32,000 nucleotides of DNA from an uncultured archaeon (GTDB lineage Archaea > Asgardarchaeota > Thorarchaeia > Thorarchaeales > CAZPUN01). Location of the stretch: NCBI GenBank assembly GCA_964589775.1, contig CAZPUN010000056.1, positions 1 through 32,000 on the forward strand, given 5' to 3'. Made by a program: the position numbers and the translations under genes. Below the pieces are notes generated by a model that was not told the DNA's origin, ran no database searches, and worked only from the letters and a program-made list of their open reading frames with translations. The number at the start of each line of letters is the position of its first letter. Positions within the stretch are counted from its first letter, which is position 1. This document shows positions 10,714 to 32,000 of the stretch, piece by piece.

Positions 10714-10998
10714 GTGAGCAATATTGTTGAAACACTAAAGGCGCACTCAAGCCTTATAAAAATAGAAATAATTCTGTTCATTACTCTTCTATTCTTAGGT
10801 GCTGTTTTTGGCATACCACCTGCCATGGAAATCGTGCATCCCGAATATTTCAATGCTACAAATGTCGAAGACTTACATATGACAATGGGCATGCTGAGAG
10901 ATGCATTTCTTTACGTACTTCCATATATAATTCTCTTAAACGTAATAATCTTAATTATCCCATTCCTATACAAGAAGATCACAGAGCGCATGCTATAA
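10714..10998 (+). CDS. small membrane protein (2 TM)
   Basis: GTG start with AGGTGA RBS; two hydrophobic helices; GGTGG-CTAGA-CCACC hairpin just downstream (11015-11029). Confidence 0.7.
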   Translation: MSNIVETLKAHSSLIKIEIILFITLLFLGAVFGIPPAMEIVHPEYFNATNVEDLHMTMGMLRDAFLYVLPYIILLNVIILIIPFLYKKITERML

Positions 10999-11287
10999 TT
11001 AAAATGAAATTATGGTGGCTAGACCACCTCACAACTATTTTTTGATTAAGATATTAACAGTCATATAAAAGACCGCCAAATATCATTGAATAGTTTCGGA
11101 TTACTCTCTCCGATTCGTACTTGTCAGATTTAGTGAATAATACGTTTCAGAAAATACTTTGTTAATTCGTCTAGTATTGTTTTTTGAATACCGGGAGGTC
11201 ACGAAAATGTTAAGATTTAGAAATTCAAAAATAATTATTAACGAAATTGCAAAATTTGTAAAAATGACAGTATATTTTTATGATTTC

Positions 11288-11305
11288 GATACTTTTATAA
11301 GTATC
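11288..11305 (+). promoter_or_regulatory. TATA box inside an operator-like inverted repeat
   Basis: GATACTT-TTAT-AAGTATC palindrome covering TTTTATAA, about 30 nt upstream of the AGGTGA RBS of the 46-aa ORF. Confidence 0.5.
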
Positions 11306-11338
11306 AATTACAATATTTAAAATTGATAGGTGATTATA

Positions 11339-11479
11339 ATGTCAAAAGTATTAAAGCACACTAGTACATTCATGGAAGGGGTACATGCGTTAGCATTACT
11401 ATACGATCTTGTAGAAAATGATGCCATGCCCACGCCTGAAGAAGCAGAAGTTGTAAGAATATTATATTCAGCTTCCTAA
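11339..11479 (+). CDS. unannotated 46-aa small protein MSKVLKHTSTFMEGVHALALLYDLVENDAMPTPEEAEVVRILYSAS
   Basis: TATA box at 11293-11300, RBS AGGTGA at 11328-11333, ATG 11339, TAA 11477-11479, then CTTTCTTTTCTTT; more GC-rich than its flanks. Confidence 0.7.
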   Translation: MSKVLKHTSTFMEGVHALALLYDLVENDAMPTPEEAEVVRILYSAS

Positions 11480-11650
11480 ACCTTTCTTTTCTTTAATATG
11501 ATAAAGAATAATATAGTTTTCATATCTATGTATTATACGTCCTTTTTAGAGCTTATATAACACATTAAATATGTACGTAATTTCCATGTCTCACTACATT
11601 TTAATTAGTCTTTTTGCAACCTTATGGATAACGTTAGAATCTATTTGAGA

Positions 11651-11921
11651 ACTAACGTTTACTCGCTATCGCAAACACACCCGTTAGAAAAACAAACATT
11701 TACTCAGGGCAGCAGGTCAGCTCTGACAGCCACTTTAAGATCAGATTTGCGAATTTACCCGACCCAAAATTCGTGAATCCTAAAAGTGAGTTGTCTGGTA
11801 GTAAATGTTTCTCCCGGCGACCCAGCCTGCTGCCCATCAATTACGAATCAAACGTGTACTCTATGATTAAAATTCGTGATATAAGTTAATCACATTTAAT
11901 GTTGAAGGTAAACGTTTACTC
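11651..11921. repeat. left cluster of AAC(G/A)TTTACTC motifs (5 copies)
   Basis: 11651-11664 ACTAACGTTTACTC, 11692-11705 ACAAACATTTACTC, 11799-11812 reverse AGAAACATTTACTA, 11848-11861 TCAAACGTGTACTC, 11908-11921 GTAAACGTTTACTC. Confidence 0.8.
11707..11835. ncRNA. putative structured ncRNA (or ssDNA hairpin element), ~130 nt, unknown family
   Basis: Closing stem GGGCAGCAGG(T)/(G)CCTGCTGCCC; nested GACAGCCACTTT/AAAGTG-A-GTTGTC and GATTTGCGAATTT/AAATTCGTGAATC; on the minus strand a BRE-TATA-like CACGAA-TTTTAATC upstream and TTTGTTTTT downstream. Confidence 0.6.
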
Positions 11922-12164
11922 GAATAATAGGATAACTTTATGGAGTTTAATTAAATATATATTTTATAGTATAAATATTTATTTAATATTAATATTTCTG
12001 ATGACACATTTACAAAACTCACGTAGCATTTACCTTCAAATGAGTCGATGATTTCAAATTATTAAGATTTCAAAAATGTAAATTTAGAACAAGATTTCGA
12101 AGTGTTAATATACACAAGTATAGAAGATCCATAAAAGAATTAAGGAACTCAATCTGTAATTAAA

Positions 12165-12863
12165 ATGGAGACCTATACTATGTCTTCGGAATTATATCCT
12201 GACGATTTCTTAGACGCACAAATGAGTTTCACTATGCCAACACGAAAATTCATGTATGAACGAATAGGAATTCAGAAATCACACAGAGTATTGGATCTGG
12301 GATGTAATAGAGGATCAATCATGAGTGAATTAAAGAGGTATACAGATTTTGTATTCGGGATAGATTTAGATTTCGAAAGTTTGGAGAGAAATCCGAATAG
12401 ATCTTCAACTGCAAATGCCAGCGTTTTACAAATTCCATTTATGGATAGCACATTTGATGTTGTTGTTGATCATTATACTCTATTATGGTCTGGAAACTAT
12501 GAAGTGGCGATTAATGAAATCATACGAGTGCTAAAAGCAGGAGGGTTTTTTATTTCTATTGAGCCGGACTATTCAGGGCGTATTGAGGGAAGTTTGGAAT
12601 ATGAGCCAGCGGAACCAAAAACTAAACTACCAATTGTTGATGCTCTGATCAATGCGGGCGCAGATCCATTTATCGCCAATAAGATGATTATGTATCTCAG
12701 GCGGAAAGGCATTTACATGGAGTTCGGAGTTTTATCATGGAATTACAATCCGTCGCAAATGCTTTTTGAAATTCAGAGCGAAAGAAAAATGACAAAGGAA
12801 CGAATTGAAAAACAATTTTTCACATATACGCCGACATTTTGGATAATTGGGAAAAAATTATAA
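12165..12863 (+). CDS. class I SAM-dependent methyltransferase (Methyltransf_11-like)
   Basis: VLDLGCNRG, GIDLD, IPFMDSTFDVV, EIIRVLKAGG; true start may be ATG 12180, which follows GGAG. Confidence 0.88.
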   Translation: METYTMSSELYPDDFLDAQMSFTMPTRKFMYERIGIQKSHRVLDLGCNRGSIMSELKRYTDFVFGIDLDFESLERNPNRSSTANASVLQIPFMDSTFDVVVDHYTLLWSGNYEVAINEIIRVLKAGGFFISIEPDYSGRIEGSLEYEPAEPKTKLPIVDALINAGADPFIANKMIMYLRRKGIYMEFGVLSWNYNPSQMLFEIQSERKMTKERIEKQFFTYTPTFWIIGKKL

Positions 12864-13703
12864 AACGTTCGGCTTACCGTGTTTCGCCAATTGATCCAGC
12901 AAGTAGACAAACTTTGCAAACCATATATCATATTTTGCGATTTGATAAACAGGAGTTAGTCTATCGATTCGCTTGCTGAAATAGAGTGTAACATCGCCGC
13001 GCATCACTTGACTCTTTTCCTCTTCGAACTTGAAAACGAACTCGGTTCCGGGACCACTAATTTCAAGTCCATACGATTCAAATATCTTAAATGGAGCTGT
13101 AAATCGATATGTAAAGTTTCGATTTCTCTGAGGATAGGGGTTTATCTTAATTGAAGGAGACAAAAAGCTAACAAAAGCAAAATAACCCTTTCGATAGGTT
13201 GGAACAATTTCTTTTTCAATAATGGGCATCAGAAACTTCCTATATGGTACTTTTTCATGATAGCCTACGAAATCTCCACATATACCCTGGAAAAGAACAT
13301 AGTTCAACTCCTTTTTGCGAGGCGAAACGGATAACACAAATTCATCATCCGGAACACTGATAGGCTTAAAGTTTGTTGCCTTATTTGGACCCTTTTGCTC
13401 AAAATGTGGCACACAAACCATTGGTAAGGGATTCCCGTTTTCTTCACGGCTTGCGAAAATTTTACGGATCTTGGGATTGTCCACATAAATAGTTAAAACT
13501 AATTCCCTAAGGTCTGAAACCTCATTTTCAACCTCGGAAATCAATTCAAAAATGTCCATTTCAGATGCATTTGTGAGACCTAAAATATCATACAAACTGA
13601 TCTCTTCAGAGAATTCATAAGATAACAAGCTAGACAAAGCCTGAAGGTACTCATCACTAACATGTGGAATTCTTACATCAAGTGTAGATCTATACTCGCT
13701 CAT
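12858..13703 (-). CDS. hypothetical protein (acidic helical N-terminus, beta-rich C-terminus)
   Basis: 281-aa ORF; no motif recognised. Confidence 0.75.
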   Translation of the reverse strand: MSEYRSTLDVRIPHVSDEYLQALSSLLSYEFSEEISLYDILGLTNASEMDIFELISEVENEVSDLRELVLTIYVDNPKIRKIFASREENGNPLPMVCVPHFEQKGPNKATNFKPISVPDDEFVLSVSPRKKELNYVLFQGICGDFVGYHEKVPYRKFLMPIIEKEIVPTYRKGYFAFVSFLSPSIKINPYPQRNRNFTYRFTAPFKIFESYGLEISGPGTEFVFKFEEEKSQVMRGDVTLYFSKRIDRLTPVYQIAKYDIWFAKFVYLLDQLAKHGKPNVL

Positions 13704-13759
13704 ACGACAATTATTGTTCTTTTCATAAATTAAGTTACCTAATCATACATTTATATTGA

Positions 13760-13803
13760 ATAAAAATAAAGAGTAAAGGGAAACGTCGATACGACGTACT
13801 CCC
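13760..13803 (-). terminator. hairpin plus U-tract terminator downstream of the 14126-13839 gene
   Basis: Minus strand reads GGGAG-U-ACGUCG UAU CGACGU-UUCCC followed by UUUACUCUUUAUUUUU. Confidence 0.55.
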
Positions 13804-13838
13804 AAGATATTACAGTATCCCCATATGATTCAATGAAC

Positions 13839-14126
13839 TTAAGAACCAGCCATTTTTTGGCGATAGTCTCCTCGGAATCGCTCGTCCATCTGATTTAACT
13901 CATCAATAAATCTTTCCAATGGCTTTGCACGCTCATAAACGCGTTCCAAGTTTAGATCCCGTACTTTTATTATTGCTTTAGAATCTCGTAGGTATACATA
14001 AATACCTCCAAGACCCAAACTATGCTTCATATATGCTACTTCTCGTGAATCCTTTACTCTATAGAATCCTTTTCTTCTTAACATTCTGCTAAACATTTTT
14101 CTTGGTGGCCTCCCGGCAATCGCCAC
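13839..14126 (-). CDS. small basic hypothetical protein (possible nucleic-acid binding)
   Basis: 95 aa, R/K-rich N-terminus (GRPPRKMFSRMLRRKGFYRVK); GTG start without an RBS, so the start is uncertain. Confidence 0.7.
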   Translation of the reverse strand: MAIAGRPPRKMFSRMLRRKGFYRVKDSREVAYMKHSLGLGGIYVYLRDSKAIIKVRDLNLERVYERAKPLERFIDELNQMDERFRGDYRQKMAGS

Positions 14127-14135
14127 TTTTTTTGT

Positions 14136-14201
14136 TTGCCGCGCATAGCGTACGCTAAGAGGAAATATTAATGACTCTGCTCACGACGCAAAGCGAGGCA
14201 A
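14136..14201 (-). promoter_or_regulatory. multi-stem structured 5' leader (cis-regulatory RNA candidate)
   Basis: UUGCCUCGC/GCGCGGCAA closing stem (1 mismatch), CUUUGC/GCAGAG hairpin (G-U pair on minus strand), UAGCGUACGCUA palindrome; TTTATTA box ~23 nt upstream. Confidence 0.5.
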
Positions 14202-14436
14202 GTATAATTGTATGAATTTGCCCTAATAAATATTTAGTAAGGATTTATCATACACGTATGTAATAGAATTACAACTCGCTTAACAATCAAATTATTACTC
14301 ATTATGCATATTTTATAGATATTTGCAAATCTTGTAAAATATATATAAATAAAATTCATATTTTCAAAGAAAAAAATGTGAAAATGTTAATAAAATTAAA
14401 TTAAAAATGATTTTGGCGCCTAAATTTTCAAGCGTA

Positions 14437-14495
14437 TCTAACGTTTACTTTGGTAAACGTTCATTTTTTTTGACATATTTAGAGTAAACGTTCAT
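14437..14495. repeat. right cluster of AACGTTTAC(T/C) motifs (3 copies)
   Basis: 14437-14450 TCTAACGTTTACTT, 14451-14464 reverse ATGAACGTTTACCA, 14482-14495 reverse ATGAACGTTTACTC. Confidence 0.8.
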
Positions 14496-14564: not shown

Positions 14565-15470
14565 TCACTGTGGGTTCATGATAAATCCTTGCTTTTCAAG
14601 ATAATCACGTAGTGCCTTTTGACTATTTATGGAAAGTGGAATTGATAACCATTGTTGCTCTTTTGGGTCAATTTGAATAGAAGACAAGACTTCTTCCAAG
14701 GAAAGAGTATTAATTCCATCTGAGTGCCCATTTCGAATATAAAATATCGGAACCAAGAATTTTGGATTATTTCCCATACTACGTCTCCATAATTTGAGAT
14801 ATCTTGCTGCCCTTAGCATTCTATAGATTTGTAAAAATACCTGATTTACTTTTCGATTCTTTATTTCAAAGATATAAATGGTATCATTGTCGAATGATAC
14901 GACATCTAATTCAAACATGAAGTTGTATTTTCTTCTTTCGATTCTCAAAATGCAATAATTCCTATAAATAGGTAATGGCCAAACACGTTTAAGTTGATTT
15001 ACAAGCGGGATTTCGTATACGGATTGATCATTAACACGATGATTACTCACATAGAGAATTTTCTGTCGCTTCTTCTTAATTGTTAAAATATAATGATATT
15101 TGCCAGGAATTTTTGGTATTCGTCTATCGTGCCATACTTCTTTGCGAGTACGTTTTTGTTTTCTGATATATAAGTCGCGTTCTCTAAAAATATCCTCTAT
15201 GATGCCTATCAAAGGAATAAGAGGATATGTTGAGACAATCCTCTCCAATGTATTTAATACTGCAAGTTGATCCATTGGTTTGAAGTTATTATACATACGT
15301 TCATGAATTGCATTCAAAATTCTTTTGAATAGATCTGTCCTGCGGACTATCAATCTAAAACGGCCAATATCAATCACTATATTTTCAAAGCTTTGGTAGG
15401 CTTTGAAATGTTTCGTTTCAATATATGCATTCACAATATAATTGAGAAGGTTTTGATACCCCCGAACCAT
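14565..15470 (-). CDS. very basic PD-(D/E)xK superfamily nuclease (NERD/Hjc/YraN-like catalytic domain) with unknown N-terminal region
   Basis: YE..L...L helix, FELDVV, IFEIK, then LQIYR: a complete E-D-ExK-Q set; R/K-rich middle region. Confidence 0.7.
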   Translation of the reverse strand: MVRGYQNLLNYIVNAYIETKHFKAYQSFENIVIDIGRFRLIVRRTDLFKRILNAIHERMYNNFKPMDQLAVLNTLERIVSTYPLIPLIGIIEDIFRERDLYIRKQKRTRKEVWHDRRIPKIPGKYHYILTIKKKRQKILYVSNHRVNDQSVYEIPLVNQLKRVWPLPIYRNYCILRIERRKYNFMFELDVVSFDNDTIYIFEIKNRKVNQVFLQIYRMLRAARYLKLWRRSMGNNPKFLVPIFYIRNGHSDGINTLSLEEVLSSIQIDPKEQQWLSIPLSINSQKALRDYLEKQGFIMNPQ

Positions 15471-15637: not shown

Positions 15638-16186
15638 ATGGATATCTGGACAGACCTTATAAATGGCATTCGAAACGCGTTAGGACCATGGGCATATCCT
15701 CCACTCTCAGCCATCTTAATTATGTTCATAAGTTTAGCAATAAGTCTCACTTCGATATTTGCACTGAAGAAGATGACGAACTTTGAGGAATTACAAGAAA
15801 AGATGAAAATTGTATATGAATTTCAAGATATGGTGAAGCAAGCGCGTAAGACCATGGACCCTGAATTATTAGCTGAGATTCAATCGCGTCAGGGTGAAGT
15901 TATGAGGATTCAGGGTGAAGTTATGAAAGCTCGTATGAAGCCAAGTCTGTATTTCTTCATTCCGTTCCTGTTGATCTTTACGATTTTCCGCGAGGTATTT
16001 CAAACCCCTGTAGCATATCTTCCTGTGAACCTGTACAAAATACCGATATTGAACATGTTAAATTTGGGTATTCCAACACCATATGGTATTGGATTTCATT
16101 TCTGGGCATGGTATTTGATAGCTGGTTTTGGAATTAATTTGATCTTACAAAAAATAACGGGTACAGGAATGGAGATGCCACACTAA
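15638..16186 (+). CDS. EMC3/TMCO1 (DUF106) family Oxa1-superfamily membrane insertase
   Basis: TM1, cytosolic coiled coil, MKPSLYFFIPFLLIF, LPV, FWAWYLI...QKITG. Confidence 0.85.
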   Translation: MDIWTDLINGIRNALGPWAYPPLSAILIMFISLAISLTSIFALKKMTNFEELQEKMKIVYEFQDMVKQARKTMDPELLAEIQSRQGEVMRIQGEVMKARMKPSLYFFIPFLLIFTIFREVFQTPVAYLPVNLYKIPILNMLNLGIPTPYGIGFHFWAWYLIAGFGINLILQKITGTGMEMPH

Positions 16187-28757: not shown

Positions 28758-29492
28758 TTAATTCATAGTTTTAGCATAATTTCTTAAGAATTCTTCAAAT
28801 TCCTTAATAGGTCTGACTCTGGAAACGAATTGGTGAAAATCATCTTTAGTTCCATAATTTTTTATATACGATTTTACAAGATCACGATATTTTTTAGGGT
28901 CTGTGACAAAAGTGATATCAATAACGTGATGCAATATGTATCTATTTTTATCGCTTTTTAATTCACTATCTTTATCAGTAGTTATAAATATCACTATGAA
29001 TTTTTGATTTTTTTTCGTTTTTTCTAATTCTCGTTTCCAAAATGCAGTTTCTGTTAATCTTTCGCGTAAGCTAGTTTTACAGGAAATAATTGCGTTTATG
29101 ATTTGAGTCTTTTTATCAATAAGAAGTATATCTACATCTGGATAAATAATGTCCCAATTTTCAATAGCAATTTGATTTTTATATTTATTTAGATCAATAT
29201 TAATTAATACATCAATTTTATTTTGTAATTGGTTTTTTATTATTATTTGCATAATATATTTAAACACTGCATATTCATACAAAGCCCCTTTGCAGGATTT
29301 CCACGCCTGATCTCTACTTCTTTCTTTGTCATAATAGTTATTGAGCAGGGCTCTTAATTTATCTTCAGAAATAATATTAAAAGTCTCAATTGCCTTTAAG
29401 TAATCTCCATTATGTTCGCTTTCAACTATTTTATCATAATGATTTTTCAGGAGCTCATAAATTATTCTTTTACATTTATGTCCTTGGGACAT
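28758..29492 (-). CDS. Type II restriction endonuclease, BsaWI/CCGG family
   Basis: KG..YE helix, YPDVD, ISCKTSLRER motif; directly downstream of a DNA methyltransferase. Confidence 0.82.
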   Translation of the reverse strand: MSQGHKCKRIIYELLKNHYDKIVESEHNGDYLKAIETFNIISEDKLRALLNNYYDKERSRDQAWKSCKGALYEYAVFKYIMQIIIKNQLQNKIDVLINIDLNKYKNQIAIENWDIIYPDVDILLIDKKTQIINAIISCKTSLRERLTETAFWKRELEKTKKNQKFIVIFITTDKDSELKSDKNRYILHHVIDITFVTDPKKYRDLVKSYIKNYGTKDDFHQFVSRVRPIKEFEEFLRNYAKTMN

Positions 29493-29498
29493 TTTATA

Positions 29499-30326
29499 TC
29501 ACTCATTCAATAGTTTTAATTGATAGATATTTCCTTCATTTATGATCCGATTCTTAGCAATTTCACAATATTTTTTATCGATTTCAACACCGATTCCTTT
29601 TCTATTTAACATAGCACATGCTACAAGCGTTGTACAGCTTCCAGCAAATGGATCAAGAATTGTATCACCGACAAAACTAAATAATTTAATACATCTTTTT
29701 GGAAGTTCTACGGGAAATGGTGCGGGATGCCCTACTCTTTTTTTGCTTTCACCAGAGAATGTCCAAACACCACGAGTCCATTCCATGAATTCATCTCGCG
29801 TGATATCTGAAACGCCATTATTTAATTTCTTCCATACTTCTTTGTAAAAAACGACAATAACTTCTACTGGTGCAATTACATACGGAGCTTTTGCACTGAG
29901 CCACGAACCCCACGCAGTTCTTCTTGAGATATTACCTTCATTCCAAATAATTGTCGAGAAGTATTTCCAACCAACTTCCTTTGCAATTCTTACAACATCA
30001 GCGTAAACACTCTGAAATCCAGCTCCTTTTCGCCCTTTACTTTTGTCTAACGGTATATTTAAACAGAAGCGACCGTCCGGTTTCGCTAGCTCTAATGCTT
30101 TTGATAGCCATTTCTCAGTAAACTCGAGATATTTTTCATATGGCAGGTCATCTTTAAACGAATTGTAATGTATATCTACATTATATGGTGGCGAGGTGAT
30201 TATTAAATCTATAGAGTTTTTAGGTATCAAGTTCGTTGTTAGAAAATCATCATTTATGATAATGAGATTATCTTTCCAATTAAAATAAATACCATTATTT
30301 ACTTCATTCATTTTAAGATCATCCAT
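29499..30326 (-). CDS. beta-class amino DNA methyltransferase (probably N4-cytosine)
   Basis: ITSPPY (motif IV) precedes HPAPFP and ILDPFAGSCTT (motif I). Confidence 0.92.
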   Translation of the reverse strand: MDDLKMNEVNNGIYFNWKDNLIIINDDFLTTNLIPKNSIDLIITSPPYNVDIHYNSFKDDLPYEKYLEFTEKWLSKALELAKPDGRFCLNIPLDKSKGRKGAGFQSVYADVVRIAKEVGWKYFSTIIWNEGNISRRTAWGSWLSAKAPYVIAPVEVIVVFYKEVWKKLNNGVSDITRDEFMEWTRGVWTFSGESKKRVGHPAPFPVELPKRCIKLFSFVGDTILDPFAGSCTTLVACAMLNRKGIGVEIDKKYCEIAKNRIINEGNIYQLKLLNE

Positions 30327-30576
30327 TCAATTCTTAATTAATTTAATTTAATAAATTTGCTGTGAAGATTCTTTGTATCGTAATCATATATTTTTGAGAA
30401 TTCCTTCGTATAATATGCACATCTTATTCAAAAATAATTCACAACAGAAATTAACAAATAAATTTCTATAACCAATTCATATAGTTTCTATAATTTCAAA
30501 AAGATTCGAAAAACTCTTTAGTTCTTGCTATTTAATAACAATTATAATAATTTTAGTTTATGAGGGATAACATACA

Positions 30577-32000
30577 ATGCTCGCGTTCAGGCGTTCTATT
30601 AAGCCAATATTAATCATGTTGATTCTTCTACAGCCTGCTTCTCTTATTTCGCTCCATATAAATTCAAATAATTTGAAAGATACGCATTTCACAAATGTGA
30701 ATGAAAAGGTCTTCGCTATTTCAATACATAAAGATTTGGCAGGAATAGATGAAAGATGGCCAATCGGGGCTCGAATTGTCGGAATGCCTTTTGAAGAACA
30801 GACTGAAGAATCTATCAATAGAACACTAGATACTTTAAAATCCCAATATGTAAATACAATAGATTATGATATAGATTTGGGAAATAATTATGATACATTT
30901 ATTGATCCATCGCTTGCAGTTCAGTTAACAGAACGAGTGGTCCGATTAGCGCATGCACGAGGAATCAAAGTTTTCGAATATGTGCCGGGTTTTGAGATGA
31001 TTACACATAATGCAAGTTCAACGAATCATACAGTATTCAAGGAGCATCCAGATTGGGTACAGCGAGATATTAACGGACGCCCAGCGATATTTAATTCATC
31101 ATATGCATTCTGGATTGTTGAGGACGATGAAGACACATGGGTGACACCACTTGCCCCGGAATGGCGAGCGATGTATATGAATTATGTAAGGAACATAACT
31201 TCAGCAGGTGTAGATGCGATTTATATTGATATTCCGTACTGGATGACGCACTTTGAAGGATGGGAGGATTCATGGGCATCCTTTGATAATTATACAGTTG
31301 CAGAATTTACACGTCGGACGGGATTACAGCCGCCGGAGAATTTCTCTATGGACAATGAGGCATTCCTGCAATGGATACGATTTAGAAAGGACGTAATTAC
31401 TGAATTCATTCGAGACGTAAAATCGAATATAACTGCAATAAATCCAGATGTGAAGCTGATAATTGAGAATTATCCATCGTTTAGGGATTGTTCGCGAATG
31501 GGAGCGGATCCTTATGAGATATTGAAATATGCAGATGGCATTGCTCATGAATACGCACTGTACGAAAAGTATCAGACCTCAAACTATACAAAATTTGACT
31601 GGCTGAATTTCATAGCAGGTCTTAAAATTATTCAGGCAATAGATGGAGACAAAAACGGTTGGATTCTTTCGTATCCTGATACGCCTAAAGATTCTGTAAT
31701 ATTAGCAGCTTCAGATGTGTTTATGGGCAGGTCCTTCTGGGAACTTAAAGAACCGTACATGTCCGGAACTGTCGGATTGGATTACCGAACTGCAGTATTC
31801 AAGTGGATATCACAATATTCGGATATCTTATATGGAAAGTGGCATGTCATAGATCCAGTCTATGTATACTTTTCTCCAAATTCTCGGGATATGCTTGCAC
31901 CATTTGAAGATCATTATTCTGTTAATCAAGGCGATAGCGACCATTTACTCGAAACACTTGGAATCATAATCATGCTCCTGCAGAACCATATCCCATTTGA
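30577..32000 (+). CDS. secreted glycoside-hydrolase-like TIM-barrel protein (GHL6/GHL10-like), runs off the window
   Basis: Manual translation is open to the end: signal peptide MLAFRRSIKPILIMLILL, AHARGIKV, EHPDWVQRD..G, GVDAIYID, WIRFR, INPD, LLQNHIPF; GAGGGA RBS. Confidence 0.8.
   Translation, partial: MLAFRRSIKPILIMLILLQPASLISLHINSNNLKDTHFTNVNEKVFAISIHKDLAGIDERWPIGARIVGMPFEEQTEESINRTLDTLKSQYVNTIDYDIDLGNNYDTFIDPSLAVQLTERVVRLAHARGIKVFEYVPGFEMITHNASSTNHTVFKEHPDWVQRDINGRPAIFNSSYAFWIVEDDEDTWVTPLAPEWRAMYMNYVRNITSAGVDAIYIDIPYWMTHFEGWEDSWASFDNYTVAEFTRRTGLQPPENFSMDNEAFLQWIRFRKDVITEFIRDVKSNITAINPDVKLIIENYPSFRDCSRMGADPYEILKYADGIAHEYALYEKYQTSNYTKFDWLNFIAGLKIIQAIDGDKNGWILSYPDTPKDSVILAASDVFMGRSFWELKEPYMSGTVGLDYRTAVFKWISQYSDILYGKWHVIDPVYVYFSPNSRDMLAPFEDHYSVNQGDSDHLLETLGIIIMLLQNHIPF

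Follow-up and report, generated by a model that had tools for sequence, protein, structure and literature searches.

Paired arrays of a palindromic word in a Thorarchaeales genome as probable operators of a MarR-like winged-helix protein

Why should copies of one 11-bp word, AACRTTTACTC, be gathered into two mostly inward-pointing clusters around a 2.5-kb unit of an archaeal chromosome? The question is raised by a 32-kb stretch of contig C56 (the window, meaning all of the DNA analyzed here at its full length) from the metagenome-assembled genome (MAG) of an uncultured Thorarchaeales archaeon (2.16 Mb in 64 contigs). The original prediction for this stretch proposed an undescribed nucleoprotein locus, be it an origin, a terminus, a segregation site or a DNA-looping regulatory unit. 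Conserved, iterated and putatively protein-binding sites were indeed found, and of the options offered the looping regulatory unit came closest; the chromosomal-maintenance options were not supported. The locus is most likely a conserved double operator array that forms the densest target of one regulator, and not an origin. Judging from sequence, the palindromes are putatively bound by dimers of a 117–126-amino-acid (aa) MarR-like winged-helix protein with a long C-terminal helix, a reading to which we give a probability of roughly 0.7. Below, contigs of this genome are denoted by C-numbers, other genomes of the order by G-numbers and loci in relatives by L-numbers.

With at most one mismatch allowed, the word matched eight times in the window against 1.34 expected, and none of 100 shuffled sequences reached eight. 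Seven matches fell within 11654–11921 and 14440–14492, the eighth being a weaker copy at 14451–14462. Counts and orientations agreed with those first reported, namely four forward and one reverse in the left cluster (array B) and one forward and two reverse in the right cluster (array A). The motif core is AACGTTTAC and the full 12-bp palindrome is GTAAACGTTTAC, the eight sites occupying two spacers 2.5 kb apart. Since the inner core AAACGTTT is itself palindromic, each site consists of one good half and one variable half of GTAAACGTTTAC. The 11-bp word most likely represents a 12-bp palindromic operator in half-extended form. The previously noted palindrome, abutting pair and four exact copies of the 10-mer AACGTTTACT on the window contig were all recovered at their places; the whole genome holds ten copies of this 10-mer. 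The abutting pair formed by sites 6 and 7 reads AACGTTTAC-TTTG-GTAAACGTT (14440–14461), and the aligned pair in L006 is a 22-bp palindrome. Distances between sites are mostly whole helical turns (31, 41, 52 and 104 bp), and a 41–44-bp spacing recurs in other families. These distances place most sites on one face of the helix, which suggests cooperative binding at both arrays.

Genome-wide, the exact 9-mer AACGTTTAC occurred 18 times, with six copies in the window locus and three in a single other spacer (C7:33520–33640). A position-weight scan added one further locus, on C26, and the best matches in the genome were confined to these three spacers. Two of the three clusters precede ordinary genes, nrdD and an MFS_2 transporter gene. 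Placement before ordinary genes is what that prediction itself had held to speak against a special chromosomal site.

The arrays were strongly conserved at the orthologous locus, whereas the absence of such conservation had been named beforehand as a possible refutation. Three assemblies, GCA_053994715.1, GCA_053985755.1 and GCA_053940065.1 (L006, L009 and L012), carry a syntenic locus in which both arrays keep their position and orientation. The three are nearly identical to each other and so count as one further lineage. Relative to this lineage the two spacers retain 79% DNA identity, against 67% for the methyltransferase and 281-aa protein genes, and every site except the lineage-specific site 5 is retained in position and orientation. 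Within 10–20 kb of flanking DNA in the relatives, the motif matched only in the two array spacers and at one promoter. When the left spacer was searched as DNA against 40 genomes from the order, no match appeared, the spacer being too diverged at such distance.

Array A (14439–14493) lies upstream of a small basic gene, and array B (11653–11921) upstream of a convergent gene, here called gene X. The small gene had been given as 95 aa; it is present, but its most likely start is the ATG at 14096, which yields 85 aa, as called in relatives. This 85-aa gene is, from its sequence context, the probable main target of array A. Of 41 genomes from the order, 36 have it in a single copy. For an order-wide survey, 13-kb regions around the gene were taken from 21 genomes of the other family. 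At least two core sites stood within 420 bp upstream of the orthologue in 19 of 23 loci, at fixed positions (about −52 and −93 and, in the opposite orientation, −255 to −340). The 9.7 kb of upstream DNA held 70 sites, or 7.2/kb versus about 0.2/kb. In the other family this upstream spacer is shared with a divergent EMC3-like gene, which is a conserved neighbor of the 85-aa gene across the order. A second array, 1.4–4.5 kb downstream of the 85-aa gene, was present in at least 14 loci and, in the five inspected, lay upstream of a convergent flavin adenine dinucleotide (FAD)-type oxidoreductase gene.

The same operator precedes a gene that may encode its binder. Genome G039 has two perfect 12-mers in the 175-bp spacer before a gene for a 117-aa winged helix-turn-helix (wHTH) protein, and the site 5 palindrome recurs upstream of this gene together with its right flank (AATAATAGG). 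The wHTH gene is single-copy in 39 of 41 genomes. In 23 of the 30 loci examined from the order, its upstream DNA held sites at two set distances, and across the 3.3-kb regulator loci only 2 of about 40 matches fell outside upstream positions. Species-representative genomes were then scanned for the recognition-helix word SKQS[IV]TN[AV]A, giving 65 loci (62 usable); all loci with a named lineage came from Thorarchaeota or Promethearchaeota MAGs. At least one core site was found within 260 bp upstream of the gene in 56 of the 62 Thorarchaeota loci, and a perfect palindrome in 20. Site density upstream was 8.3/kb versus 0.125/kb in the flanks (66-fold), with peaks at −140 to −160 and −60 to −80. 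The recognition helix, SKQSITNAA(R/K)RL, is nearly invariant, the copy in the window's own genome included. In one locus, L042 (G019:C1), the regulator is present with an I-to-V change in this helix; no AACGTTTAC lies upstream, and three GTCTAC/GTAGAT-like words occur at similar distances, so the operator may have diverged there.

In the window's own genome the regulator is probably encoded at C21:50106–50486. This is its only homologue there and is 42% identical to the orthologues of the other family (E 6e-25). Another wHTH gene precedes it as the first of a pair (114 aa, then 126 aa), and a second NrdD-family gene (730 aa; PF13597, E 1e-99) is oriented divergently from the two; the three genes lie within C21:47361–50486 (L016 and L154). 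A TraB-like gene neighbors the regulator in 85 of 95 other Thorarchaeota loci. The AlphaFold2 (AF2) model of the regulator (pLDDT 85) comprises four helices, a beta hairpin and a long C-terminal helix, that is, a winged helix plus a long helix. Its top 50 Foldseek matches were all MarR, PadR, GntR or ArsR regulators, with weak E-values (0.02–0.13). Pfam MarR_2 matched 21 of 27 family members weakly, the best at 23.8 bits against a cut-off of 27, and the C21 copy matched neither MarR nor MarR_2. As all scores lie below the Pfam gathering cut-offs, we term the protein MarR-like and not a MarR member. In the literature library searched, no paper dealt with the motif or the regulator in archaea.

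Very little is known of gene regulation in Asgard archaea, almost none of which have been cultured. The candidate pair described here, a 12-bp palindrome and a small, purifiable protein, occurs in nearly all Thorarchaeota genomes searched and could be tested in vitro without culturing the organism. Its candidate targets comprise the conserved 85-aa protein gene, which adjoins that of the EMC3-like insertase, together with a geranylgeranyl-reductase or methyltransferase gene, nrdD and a transporter gene.

We propose that several dimers of the MarR-like protein would bind one face of the DNA cooperatively and thereby control, whether by repression or activation, both outward promoters. The regulator could possibly bridge the two arrays, and would act at the same operator before nrdD (C7) and the MFS_2 transporter gene (C26). 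By analogy, the system most likely resembles a MarR/PadR-type regulator served by several phased operators, although the protein does not score as a Pfam MarR member. As in the ST1710/BldR-type archaeal MarR proteins, OhrR, MarR and LmrR, there is a small dimer-type wHTH protein, an approximately 12-bp palindromic operator and a pair of sites at promoter-like distances before the regulator's own gene, and the top fold matches all belong to this class. Unlike in those systems, a single long C-terminal helix replaces the MarR helical dimerization core, the recognition-helix word was found only in Thorarchaeota-type MAGs, and the main putative target is a pair of multi-site arrays 1.4–4.5 kb apart instead of one operator. 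Helically phased sites in two clusters that bracket genes also recall looping repressors (bacterial Lac, Gal and AraC; archaeal Lrp-type Ss-LrpB with three phased sites). Here, in contrast, the inter-array distance is on a kilobase scale, the protein family is different and looping would have to be postulated.

Several observations weigh against this reading. Array A lies approximately 210–260 bp upstream of the putative TATA box of the 85-aa gene, which is far for simple occlusion. The regulator gene in the window's own genome has no operator upstream, and its product is well diverged from the orthologues beside which the sites were found. The orientation of sites relative to the downstream gene is inconsistent between loci, and no common function is evident among the candidate target genes. 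The exact 12-mer showed no overall enrichment over a reversed control in 40 other genomes of the order, so that in the other family the signal is positional and not global. The word also precedes the 85-aa gene as consistently as it does the regulator gene, and association alone cannot separate the two as binder candidates. Finally, four genomes in which no 85-aa gene was found gave no above-threshold match before the regulator gene; one of them, G018, has degenerate sites there by eye.

The last two points bear on an unlikely alternative, in which the sites are operators bound by the 85-aa protein, autoregulating and also controlling the wHTH gene, or by some other factor, with the wHTH gene merely a target. 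The original prediction had likewise looked to one of the adjacent basic orphans for the binder. The 85-aa gene keeps its array in the window's own genome, where the wHTH gene has none, and it is under very strong purifying selection. Its product has a predicted HicA/dsRBD-like fold, a type that usually binds RNA, from an AF2 model of low confidence (pLDDT 60) and a weak HicA match; Pfam, NCBIfam and PDB sequence searches assigned it to no family. Remote homologues of the gene outside the Thorarchaeota lineage have no such sites upstream. A single-copy wHTH protein whose recognition helix is invariant, paired with a 12-bp palindrome, is moreover a classical regulator signature. The winged-helix protein encoded on another contig is hence the better candidate, and the 85-aa protein a minor rival.

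The arrays could alternatively be read as a replication origin, a terminus or a centromere-like segregation site, as first suggested by their inverted clusters. The gene orientation changes between them, they lie in long conserved non-coding DNA, and a unique 98% AT tract adjoins the left array. As originally described, 11946–11997 contains one G and no C, and is the sole 52-nt tract of such composition in the 32 kb; the tract at 14335–14414 is 91% AT. Iterated inverted boxes with an AT-rich tract nearby are features of an archaeal oriC (origin recognition boxes (ORB) or mini-ORB, a DNA-unwinding element and orc1/cdc6). The window motif, however, is unrelated to ORB, as had been recognized, and the two arrays stand 2.5 kb apart with genes between them. 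ORB boxes of the form TTCCA[AG]TGGAAATCAAGGGG were found only on C13 (30817–30840 and 32137–32160), inverted and flanking an AT-rich tract beside orc1/cdc6. A canonical oriC can be delimited there at 30800–32200, with two perfect inverted boxes, a degenerate third and the AT-rich tract, orc1/cdc6 itself lying at 29370–30629 (−). Cdc6_C matched only on C13 and C12 in the whole genome. No Orc1/Cdc6 gene was found on the window contig, and no initiator, ParA/SegA partition ATPase or site-binding adaptor domain was found among the window genes scanned. The word stands at fixed promoter-like distances before ordinary genes and the regulator gene in dozens of genomes. The arrays, finally, sit at the outer, upstream ends of two convergent units, which accounts for their inward-pointing look. 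The 98% AT tract has boxes on one side only and a promoter or leader explains it equally well; it probably represents such DNA and not an unwinding element. The origin-like look of the arrays is thus misleading, and we consider a replication or segregation role extremely unlikely.

Table 1. Features in and around the two arrays, in window coordinates.
Feature	Position	Strand	Remarks
Conserved small gene, 47–49 aa	11330–11479	+	Listed open reading frame; 46–47-aa gene called in three relatives
Site 1, TAACGTTTACTC (left array B)	11653–11664	+	Position kept in L006, L009 and L012
Site 2, AAACATTTACTC	11694–11705	+	Abuts the 5' foot of the hairpin; identical in relatives
GC-rich hairpin, 129 nt, outer stem GGGCAGCAGG/CCTGCTGCCC	11707–11835	+	Fold z; covariation
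Site 3, AAACATTTACTA	11799–11810	−	Inverted, within the 3' arm of the hairpin; surroundings CGCCGGGAGAAACATTTACT identical in relatives
Site 4, AAACGTGTACTC	11850–11861	+	Relatives show AAACGTTTACTC at the aligned position
Site 5, full palindrome GTAAACGTTTAC then TC	11906–11921	.	In a ~40-nt lineage-specific insertion; palindrome itself 11908–11919
AT tract, 98% AT	11943–11997	.	Between left array and methyltransferase gene; conserved in L006
S-adenosylmethionine (SAM)-dependent methyltransferase (gene X here)	12165–12863	+	Pfam Methyltransf_11, E 5e-15; convergent with 85-aa gene, downstream of array B
281-aa protein between arrays	12858–13703	−	Outside any known family
85-aa basic protein	13839–14096	−	aa identity 92% versus 55–62% for neighbors; predicted alpha-beta-beta-beta-alpha, HicA/dsRBD-like
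GC-rich conserved leader of 85-aa gene	14097–14205	−	L006 alignment; includes hairpin GTGGC...GCCAC
Near-identical conserved block with TATA-like AAATATTTATTAG	14220–14288	−	Putative promoter of 85-aa gene
Site 6, TAACGTTTACTT (right array A)	14439–14450	+	
Site 7, GAACGTTTACCA	14451–14462	−	Inverted pair with abutting site 6
Site 8, GAACGTTTACTC	14482–14493	−	Direct repeat D4; 31 bp (three helical turns) from site 7
301-aa protein	14565–15470	−	PD-(D/E)xK-like ELD...EIK motif; between EMC3-like and 85-aa genes
EMC3/TMCO1-like (DUF106) membrane protein gene	15638–16186	+	Pfam PF01956, E 1e-17; synteny

Array B additionally contains a GC-rich hairpin (Table 1). Folding of 11640–11940 gave z −5.5 for the + strand versus −2.4 for the − strand. 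The hairpin is kept in the relatives despite indels, with one compensatory pair and with G-U pairs on the + strand only. It is probably an RNA element transcribed on the strand of the methyltransferase gene. Rfam covariance models gave only chance-level matches, at E up to 10, over 10900–12250. A hairpin was also found at the second array in nine genomes, its foot formed by the inverted pair CGTGTAC...GTACACG; these nine sequences show five covarying pairs, with G-U pairs on the strand of the oxidoreductase gene. Gene X differs between families, encoding a methyltransferase in one and a geranylgeranyl-reductase-type protein in another (in G003 it matches the geranylgeranyl-reductase catalytic domain), and the arrays and hairpin persist.

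The words might alternatively act in RNA, as pairing modules of one long structured transcript (11640–11935) whose AAACGTTT cores pair mutually. The minimum-energy fold pairs site 1 with site 5, and site 2 is complementary to site 3, besides the strong + strand fold and the covariation in two families. That covariation is limited to the hairpin proper, however, and site 5 is missing in the closest relatives. The sites, moreover, face either way, stand upstream of putative promoters and, elsewhere, precede unrelated genes. An RNA role for the words is accordingly very unlikely. Returning to DNA-bound operators, a more elaborate and unlikely version would unite the arrays, the covarying hairpin RNA of array B and the dsRBD/HicA-like 85-aa protein in one module. 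Here the regulator would close a kilobase-scale loop and co-control a small RNA together with the RNA-binding protein that partners it, next to the gene for the EMC3-like insertase.

The genes between the arrays form a convergent block, with the methyltransferase gene on the + strand and the genes for the 281-aa and small basic proteins on the − strand. Inward words at both ends of this 2.5-kb block, and a gene content that varies between families, could be taken as the ends of a mobile element or miniature inverted-repeat transposable element (MITE) carrying the unit. Yet blastn of both spacers against the genome returned only the spacers themselves, and this lack of repetition makes a mobile element unlikely. 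No integrase or transposase was seen among the neighboring genes scanned, and throughout the order the arrays keep the same 85-aa and EMC3-like genes as neighbors. We give the mobile-element explanation next to no credence.

The 281-aa protein had no match in Pfam, NCBIfam or PDB searches, and a single homologous cluster was found (63% identical). The 301-aa protein had no family or PDB match and showed no connection to the 11-bp motif; its gene is syntenic in close relatives, and the order's other family lacks it at this place. At the left edge of the locus, a relative's sequence encodes a peptide near-identical to the 11330–11479 product, with synonymous substitutions. With this small gene ending at 11479, the true non-coding spacer before the methyltransferase gene spans only 11480–12164. 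A possible ~40-aa gene lies further upstream, at about 11200–11320, and both small genes are called in relatives. An Rfam scan of the window at gathering score and a tRNA search yielded nothing. The leader of the 85-aa gene contains the hairpin GTGGC-GATTGCCGGGAG-GCCAC (14100–14121, −), which is identical in relatives and holds GGAGG ~12 nt before the ATG; the hairpin may sequester the ribosome-binding site. A similar GCCGGGAGG element precedes the 53%-identical 85-aa homologue in L014.

At the two other loci of the genome that carry the word, a pair of sites lies 100–140 bp upstream of the MFS_2 transporter gene on C26, with a pair also at the L012 orthologue, and two or three sites lie 440–550 bp upstream of nrdD on C7. 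The relative L152 retains both sites before nrdD in a spacer that is otherwise 79% identical. Single exact sites elsewhere in other genomes were mostly intragenic or beside unrelated genes; none stood beside nrdD or MFS_2 homologues, so that no wider regulon kept throughout the other family came to light. The palindromic core is nearly identical to Firmicute cre/XylR-type operators (TGTAAACGTTTACA-like), which are bound by LacI/ROK-family proteins (PMC9598941, PMC9104551). A LacI-type binder was rejected, as the window's own genome encodes no LacI-type helix-turn-helix, and the likeness is taken as coincidence. In five genomes (G003, G009, G014, G019 and G039) the 9-mer AACGTTTAC was 2- to 8-fold rarer than its reversed control (8–16 versus 29–77 copies per genome), which may reflect avoidance of stray operators or simply CpG depletion. 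One further locus, L136 (G001:C30:3400–3520), does not adjoin the regulator gene but has, at a gene boundary, a pair of perfect GTAAACGTTTAC palindromes separated by 78 bp, the same spacing as that seen before the regulator gene elsewhere.

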